From the IMG/VR virus record IMGVR_UViG_3300037205_000062, positions 64,001 through 128,000 of that record: DNA of 64,000 nucleotides; one strand, 5' to 3'. The position numbers and the translations under genes were made by a program. Below are positions 60,089-60,179 of this stretch, piece after piece; within the stretch, counting starts at the first letter, position 1, and each line of letters begins with the position of its first letter. Under the pieces are notes generated by a model. That model saw only the letters and a list, made by a program, of their open reading frames with translations. It ran no database searches and was not told where the DNA came from. Source of the stretch: a virus.

Positions 60089-60179
60089 GGTCGGTGTCCT
60101 CATTGCGAATCTGTAAAATTCGTCCTTACAACAAAAATGAGAAGTTAGGTCAATGGAGCGTTACCATCACTGACTACCA
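60089..60179 (+). tRNA. tRNA-Tyr(GTA) lacking a D hairpin
   Basis: GGTCGGT/ACTGACT-ACCA; CGAAT-CTGTAAA-ATTCG; long variable region. Confidence 0.75.

Follow-up and report, generated by a model that had tools for sequence, protein, structure and literature searches.

What kind of RNA is encoded by a gene that carries the anticodon of tRNA-Tyr, lies inside a phage tRNA array, and leaves no place for a D hairpin? The gene is 91 nt long and was found in the phage record IMGVR_UViG_3300037205_000062 of IMG/VR, which is 162,911 bp long, about 79% complete, and has G+C content of about 29%. The stretch analysed, called the window below, comprises bases 64001–128000 of this record (64,000 nt), and coordinates refer to it unless another sequence is named. 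In the first-pass annotation, made from the letters alone, the gene was described as a D-armless tRNA-Tyr whose missing D stem may be rebuilt with the variable loop in a pseudoknot-like, non-cloverleaf fold. We consider it to be a phage tRNA-Tyr(GUA) that would be charged and would decode Tyr on a non-cloverleaf scaffold; from the sequence comparisons presented here, the probability of this reading is about 0.75. Features are listed in Table 1.

Table 1. Features in the window and at related loci; d/d' and v/v' are the strands of the predicted crossing helices.
Feature	Position	Strand	Remarks
Terminator	58818–58840		ahead of tRNA array; promoter/terminator scan
Promoter-like site	58876–58904		ahead of tRNA array; promoter/terminator scan
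tRNA array	from about 59,000 onward	+	
tRNA-Trp(CCA)	59837–59909	+	
Rewired tRNA-Tyr(GUA), predicted	60089–60179	+	91 nt
Acceptor stem, 5' strand GGUCGGUG	60089–60096	+	8 nt; pairs with 60168–60175
Connector UC	60097–60098	+	2 nt; from acceptor stem to strand d
Strand d, CUCAUU	60099–60104	+	in place of D-stem 3' strand; pairs with 60136–60141
Anticodon arm	60105–60123	+	6-bp stem GCGAAU/AUUCGU, loop CUGUAAA; stem covaries in family
Anticodon GUA	60113–60115	+	
Strand v, CCU	60124–60126	+	5' strand of variable-arm helix; pairs with 60147–60149
Linker UACAACAAA	60127–60135	+	A-rich; from v to d'
Strand d', AAUGAG	60136–60141	+	D-stem 5' strand equivalent, inside variable-arm loop
AAGU	60142–60145	+	follows d'; equivalent of D-loop core (A18 G19 U20)
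Strand v', AGG	60147–60149	+	3' strand of variable-arm helix; preceded by U60146
Spacer UCA	60150–60152	+	after v'
T arm	60153–60167	+	4-bp stem AUGG/CCAU, loop AGCGUUA (A54 G55 C56 G57 U58 U59 A60)
Acceptor stem, 3' strand CACUGACU	60168–60175	+	pairs with 60089–60096
Discriminator A73	60176	+	
Encoded CCA	60177–60179	+	
tRNA-Ser(UGA)	60234–60321	+	
ORF, 68 aa	60319–60525	+	between tRNA genes
tRNA-Gln(UUG)	60830–60903	+	
Rewired tRNA-Tyr gene	L005: 5551–5638		array gap between Ile and Glu
Rewired Arg(UCU)	L009: 7325–7411	−	UGGA after d', T loop UUCGAUU
Rewired Arg(UCU)	L143: 2254–2341	+	CCGGAA after d', T loop UUCGAUU
Rewired Arg(UCU)	L131: 4885–4971	−	UAGA after d', T loop UGCAACU
Rewired tRNA-Tyr(GUA), unannotated	MH675552 (Bacteroides phage crAss001): 4141–4238 (= L158: 1501–1598)	+	covariance model search

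ARAGORN called seven tRNAs in the window, and Rfam added those for Asn and Cys. At 60089–60179, no call was obtained from ARAGORN and no match to the cloverleaf tRNA model of Rfam (RF00005) at E ≤ 10. In the majority of the neighbouring array tRNAs, the T loop is unusual and has G55. Comparison of the neighbouring ORFs with PHROGs recognized generic phage proteins only, and apart from the terminator and the promoter-like site in Table 1, nothing informative was revealed in the promoter/terminator scan. The 68-aa ORF has two Cys-x-x-Cys pairs and is zinc-ribbon-like; it has no PHROG match.

Other tRNA genes of this array also escaped the programs. Neither ARAGORN nor Rfam called tRNA-Trp(CCA), in which an 8-bp acceptor is directly joined to a 4-bp D stem with the 4-nt D loop AAGU, followed by a 6-bp anticodon stem and the T loop AGCGUUA on a weak stem of 3–4 bp. 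The same is true of tRNA-Ser(UGA), with a 6-bp D stem, 4-nt loop GAGU, long variable arm, and T loop GGCAGAA; it looks like a serine tRNA of the (8/4) allo-tRNA type. An ordinary cloverleaf is predicted for tRNA-Gln(UUG) (D loop AGAAGCA, T loop AGCGUUA), which has no ARAGORN call and is absent from the Rfam list at E ≤ 10. Standard tools clearly miss part of the tRNA set of the source phage.

Between the acceptor and anticodon stems of the 91-nt RNA, there are only 8 nt (UC and CUCAUU), and a D hairpin is not possible there, as had been noticed in the first-pass annotation. The extent of this interval had to be corrected, since G60096 pairs with C60168 (G-C in 52 of 54 homologs) and the acceptor stem is of 8 bp. 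The other observation of that annotation is confirmed as well: AAUGAG in the enlarged variable region is exactly complementary to CUCAUU. When the single sequence was shuffled, about 4% of the shuffles had a 6-nt Watson–Crick match between the two segments by chance, and the minimum-free-energy fold includes d/d' with unremarkable stability (z = −0.94). The single sequence is therefore only suggestive, and homologs decide.

In the pattern with which homologs were collected, nothing was fixed apart from the anticodon loop and the core of the T loop; a filter on GAAGU was added, so the invariance of the anticodon loop, the T loop, and GAAGU is partly by construction. The pattern matched in more than 119 viral contigs, and about 100 of the listed matches had the same layout. 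Alignment A1, used for counting, contains 54 distinct sequences, which are related to one another, so that cell counts overstate the number of independent events. A MAFFT alignment (A2) was kept out of the counting because d' was misplaced in some rows.

In 99.7% of the A1 cells for the d/d' helix (columns 11–16 with 50–55), the bases pair, and at five of the six pairs both sides have changed; one of the pairs, for example, occurs as UA (23), GU (19), AU (7), CG (3), and GC (2). About 37 distinct d/d' combinations were counted among 79 sequences. Covariation in homologs had been named in the first-pass annotation as a check of the pairing, and the complementarity of 6 bp is kept through compensatory changes, which supports a D stem rebuilt with the variable loop. 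For the whole structure, the covariation score is 0.477, compared with 0.140 in shuffled alignments (0 of 500 reached 0.477) and at most 0.095 when the partners were slid.

A second helix, v/v', joins the two sides of the variable arm. At least 3 bp of it can be formed in 75 of 79 homologs, in 16 helix types, compared with 37% in mismatched controls. Its length is 3–4 bp in the family and 3 bp in the window copy. In the formal count on 38 sequences, pairing of the three core pairs is 100%, and all three have changes on both sides (GC/AU; UA/CG/GC; CG/UA/GC). Because d/d' and v/v' cross and both covary, the fold is a true pseudoknot and not a long nested helix, and the non-cloverleaf interpretation of the first-pass annotation is supported.

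Covariation backs all five helices. The acceptor stem is paired in 98.8% of cells in the family, with both-side changes at six of eight pairs; in the window gene, all eight positions are paired, G1.U72 and G5.U68 being wobbles. The eighth acceptor pair (columns 8/83) is the nearly constant G-C mentioned above and the T stem has four pairs, therefore the acceptor/T branch is of the 8/4 and not the 7/5 type, with 12 bp in total. Covariation in the T stem was seen at the two outer pairs. The connector is 2 nt long in all 79 family members (CC 48, AU 18, UC 6, UU 6, AC 1). Strand d is directly continuous with the anticodon stem, like the 3' strand of the D stem in a normal tRNA. The anticodon stem is of 5+1 bp, its outer pair being G.U (41 of 54 sequences) at the place of 26.44, and the 7-nt loop has U33 and a purine (A37). 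The linker between v and d' is mostly 4–9 nt long (range 2–10) and 56% A. In the T loop, C56 and purine 57 are kept, without U54 and U55, on a stem of 4 bp, not 5. CCA is encoded in nearly all members, and the RNA is about 86–94 nt long in the family.

With the covariance model built from A1, the window gene scored 80.2 bits (E = 5e-22) and was the only full-length match in the window. A strict structural descriptor recognized 101 GUA genes and one UCU gene, with no match on reversed control sequences. A relaxed descriptor was also tried, but it had 17 matches on the reversed controls, and outside GUA and UCU the noise equalled the signal; the strict descriptor together with manual parsing was trusted. 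The base-pair-level structure predicted for the pseudoknotted RNA at 60089–60179 is very probably correct.

The arrangement is described most simply as a transplantation, into the variable loop, of a block consisting of the 5' strand of the D stem and the D-loop core (AAGU), after which the acceptor stem leads into the upper end of the 3' strand of the D stem. ARAGORN called 1766 tRNAs in all fetched loci, of which 1719 were parsed. GG was present in the D loop of 98% of tRNAs with U55, while 82% of those with G55 had AG without GG. Ordinary tRNAs with the T loop AGCGUUA (n = 31) have D loops such as AAAAGUA and ACAAGCA, and 28 of the 31 follow the form AxAAG(U/C)A. The D-loop core belonging with this T loop is thus AAGU. 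By topology, d/d' would stack on the anticodon stem like a normal D stem, and AAGU would cap d/d' and dock on the T loop (G19-C56, A18 with G55), which would restore the L shape; we infer this shape from the connectivity of the helices.

The elbow is remodelled array-wide, in window 59073–63493 as well as in the fetched loci, where G55 goes with AG and U55 with GG. In some of these tRNAs, A54-U58 stands in place of U54-A58.

The rewired scaffold is not limited to the Tyr anticodon. Three genes with the anticodon of Arg(UCU) were obtained from the strict descriptor, the model matches, and the relaxed scan (Table 1), and ARAGORN called none of the three. In the rewired Arg-type genes and in the gene of crAss001, GG follows d' when the T loop has U55 and AG when it has G55. 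The v/v' helix is present in these versions too. The A that follows G19, i.e., position A20, is kept in all three rewired Arg(UCU) genes; A20 is the main arginine identity element (PMC9976931).

The predicted design is kept in many phages and mobile tRNA arrays. With a stricter pattern, 27 loci were found in bacterial genomes, mostly MAGs of Verrucomicrobiae and including one 5.9-Mb chromosome, and a few MAGs of gut Firmicutes and Bacteroidales also have the rewired gene. All the bacterial loci are within dense tRNA arrays. As the 5.9-Mb Verrucomicrobiae chromosome has an ordinary tRNA-Tyr elsewhere (gene L153), the rewired form is an array-borne extra and not a housekeeping gene. The possibility that it is the native tRNA-Tyr of Verrucomicrobiae was rejected on the basis of the dense-array location and the normal tRNA-Tyr elsewhere in one complete chromosome. 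The Verrucomicrobiae chromosome OY969416.1 (L128/G001; 5.9 Mb) has two dense tRNA arrays, at about 346–361 kb and 2.430–2.435 Mb, besides dispersed housekeeping tRNAs, with 69 Rfam tRNA matches in all.

In Bacteroides phage crAss001, a gap of 170 nt, flanked by the annotated genes for tRNA-Lys and tRNA-Phe, contains the gene. Its layout is 7/5, with CAUCA as d and UGAUG as d', UAAUGGAC after d', and a normal T loop UUCGAGU. No Tyr is among the 23 annotated tRNAs in the first 50 kb of MH675552. When the region and family members were compared by blastn with 50,697 cultured-phage records, nothing useful was obtained, because the family is too short and too variable; crAss001 was reached by the covariance model only. 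It is a cultured system that carries the rewired tRNA-Tyr.

Several features point to tyrosine. The discriminator A73 is invariant in all 79 aligned members, and G1-C72 is present in 53 of 54, with G.U in the window copy; the role of A73 in tRNA-Tyr identity is described in PMC9976931. In twelve viral loci, the arrays comprise as many as 27 tRNAs, which serve 19 amino acids and include no ordinary tRNA-Tyr, and the rewired gene occupies a gap in the array, as in L005. ARAGORN called only three Tyr among the 1766 tRNAs of all fetched loci, one of them a host gene that was fetched deliberately, compared with 56–160 for each other amino acid. On the source phage record, it called 13 tRNAs and none for Tyr, and no GUA hairpin other than that of the window gene stands in a tRNA-like context in the 163 kb; with the record about 79% complete, its absent portion could contain a normal tRNA-Tyr. 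The T loop without U54 and U55 and the G1.U72 pair of the window copy count against a Tyr decoder, as does the 3-bp v/v' helix, which would have to replace the long variable arm used by bacterial TyrRS. The usual tRNA-processing enzymes would release the RNA from the array transcript. Because no TyrRS was found in the phage record, charging by the host TyrRS is proposed; it may act through A73, G1-C72 (G.U in the window copy), and G34/U35, and the charged tRNA would read UAY codons.

RNAfold, which cannot predict pseudoknots, gives exactly the nested structure as its minimum-free-energy fold. In a purely nested RNA, d/d' would lengthen the anticodon stem with a bulge, v/v' would stay unformed, and a three-way junction would result; the mere 3 bp of v/v' in the window copy agree with this. 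Such an RNA is nevertheless improbable, as the core pairs of v/v' are always paired in the 38 sequences in spite of exchanges, the helix types number 16 in 79 sequences and mismatched controls stay at 37%, and the helix returns in the Arg-type and crAss001 versions. The pseudoknot is also hard to reconcile with a scrambled precursor. The permuted tRNA genes of Cyanidioschyzon merolae have their order restored by processing to a normal tRNA, and here cleavage and ligation could similarly yield an ordinary cloverleaf tRNA-Tyr, as the gene order is that of a normal tRNA with one block moved and RNA ligases are encoded by some phages. However, the RNA would have to be cut twice and joined twice at sites that are not adjacent, no bulge-helix-bulge motif or intron-like element was found in the sequence, and the covarying helices are exactly those that fold the unprocessed transcript; conservation of v/v' around an excised segment would lack a reason. 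We hold such maturation to be very improbable. A decayed tRNA-Tyr pseudogene with a coincidental match of 6 nt would be rejected by tRNA finders, as happens here, and the chance of about 4% in the single sequence leaves room for it, but the design persists with compensatory changes in more than 79 distinct sequences, drawn both from bacterial arrays and from phages that differ greatly in base composition, and this already refutes the reading.

The RNA may also fold as proposed and serve outside translation, as a decoy or sponge for a nuclease or sensor of tRNA-Tyr or as a regulator. Defences that cleave tRNA-Tyr do exist, and extra phage tRNA-Tyr can give the host tRNA partial protection (PMC13096335). 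Many enzymes that act on tRNA rely on a consensus from which the T loop and the D region depart widely, and the array-bearing Verrucomicrobiae chromosome has a normal tRNA-Tyr too. Conserved, however, are A73, the encoded CCA, a faultless anticodon loop of 7 nt (U33, A37), and an acceptor/T branch whose 12 bp correspond to the length that EF-Tu expects, and a decoy could do without all of these. The arrays cover 19 other amino acids and leave exactly the Tyr slot for the rewired gene. Furthermore, charging is indicated by the rewired Arg(UCU) genes, where this scaffold combines the Arg anticodon with A20, the identity base for Arg. A role outside translation is thus rather unlikely, and a charged Tyr decoder remains the preferred reading.

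What a phage could gain from such a tRNA is suggested by antiphage defence. PtuAB of Septu and retron-Eco7 cleaves the variable arm of tRNA-Tyr on infection, and phage tRNA-Tyr counteracts it, in T5 reportedly via a distinct variable loop (PMC13096335, PMC11555353). A variable arm tied into the D helix could let the rewired tRNA-Tyr escape PtuAB-like enzymes, and the benefit, as the most speculative step, would be that Tyr decoding is supplied in a form resisting nucleases directed against ordinary tRNA-Tyr. This defence-evasion rationale is tentative. Equally doubtful is the broader idea that the pseudoknotted fold is a further tRNA scaffold of general use, serving Tyr and Arg(UCU) at the least, that would be fully competent for charging, EF-Tu, and the ribosome and might have spread through phages and mobile tRNA arrays by its invisibility to host nucleases that recognize the D-arm and variable-arm geometry of ordinary tRNA-Tyr, such as PtuAB. 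If the rewired tRNA resists tRNA-Tyr-cleaving defences, a structural counter-defence would be added to the known routes of dosage and loop mutations. If the Tyr decoder is real, the L shape would be reachable through a different chain connectivity that is widespread and conserved, the tRNA-Tyr "missing" from many phage arrays, including that of crAss001, would be explained, and a blind spot of tRNA finders would be exposed. It would be a natural test case for the real requirements of TyrRS, RNase P, EF-Tu, and the ribosome, and possibly a natural scaffold for tRNA engineering.

To our knowledge, the cloverleaf is treated as near-universal outside mitochondria. Full-text literature searches, including papers on unusual tRNAs, found no published description of such a topology. 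The D-armless tRNAs of mitochondria (metazoan mt-tRNA-Ser(AGY) and nematode mt-tRNAs; PMC7609411), to which the first-pass annotation had referred, share the lack of a D hairpin, but the likeness is superficial only. In the mitochondrial forms, the D arm is lost and the RNAs are short with relaxed elbows (PMC7609411), whereas the rewired RNA of phages and bacteria is long and has its D arm rewired, not lost, with a covarying 6-bp D helix and a D-loop motif (the AAGU core) matched to the T loop. No pseudoknotted form is described in that review (PMC7609411).

Pseudoknotted, non-cloverleaf structures that are known to be charged are the tRNA-like structures of plant RNA viruses (TYMV; BMV TLS-Tyr; PMC9976931), and the charging of BMV TLS-Tyr by TyrRS is a precedent for tolerance of this enzyme to non-standard topology (PMC9976931). 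These structures stand at the 3' ends of viral genomes, have the pseudoknot in the acceptor branch, and are non-decoding, while the rewired RNA is encoded by a free-standing array gene and has a full anticodon arm. Permuted and split tRNA genes (C. merolae, archaea) have swapped halves and bulge-helix-bulge motifs and are processed to a normal tRNA; in the rewired gene, only an internal block is displaced, the motif is absent, and the unprocessed order corresponds to the conserved fold.

With ordinary class II tRNA-Tyr(GUA), such as L153, the rewired form shares the loop CUGUAAA, A73, the encoded CCA, an extra helix between the anticodon and T arms, and, in most members, G1-C72. L153 differs in its 7/5 branch, a D hairpin (CCC / AAGUGGCCAAC / GGG), G18G19, and the T loop UUCGAAU, and ARAGORN and Rfam recognize the ordinary form but not the rewired one. 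With the (8/4) allo-tRNAs and tRNA-Sec-like forms (Mukai et al. 2017, PMC5389517), it has in common the 12-bp 8/4 branch, the 6-bp D helix with a 4-nt loop motif, the 6-bp anticodon stem followed by an extra arm, and the occurrence in phage tRNA clusters. Phage 8/4 forms were reported there for Ser and His, not Tyr, and without a pseudoknot (PMC5389517). In the window, the neighbours tRNA-Ser(UGA) and tRNA-Trp(CCA) represent this type in ordinary hairpin versions. In allo-tRNAs, an ordinary hairpin on the 5' side of the anticodon arm forms the D arm, whereas in the rewired RNA, the D 5' strand and its loop stand in the variable loop, so that the D hairpin is open, with the anticodon arm between its strands, and d/d' crosses v/v'.
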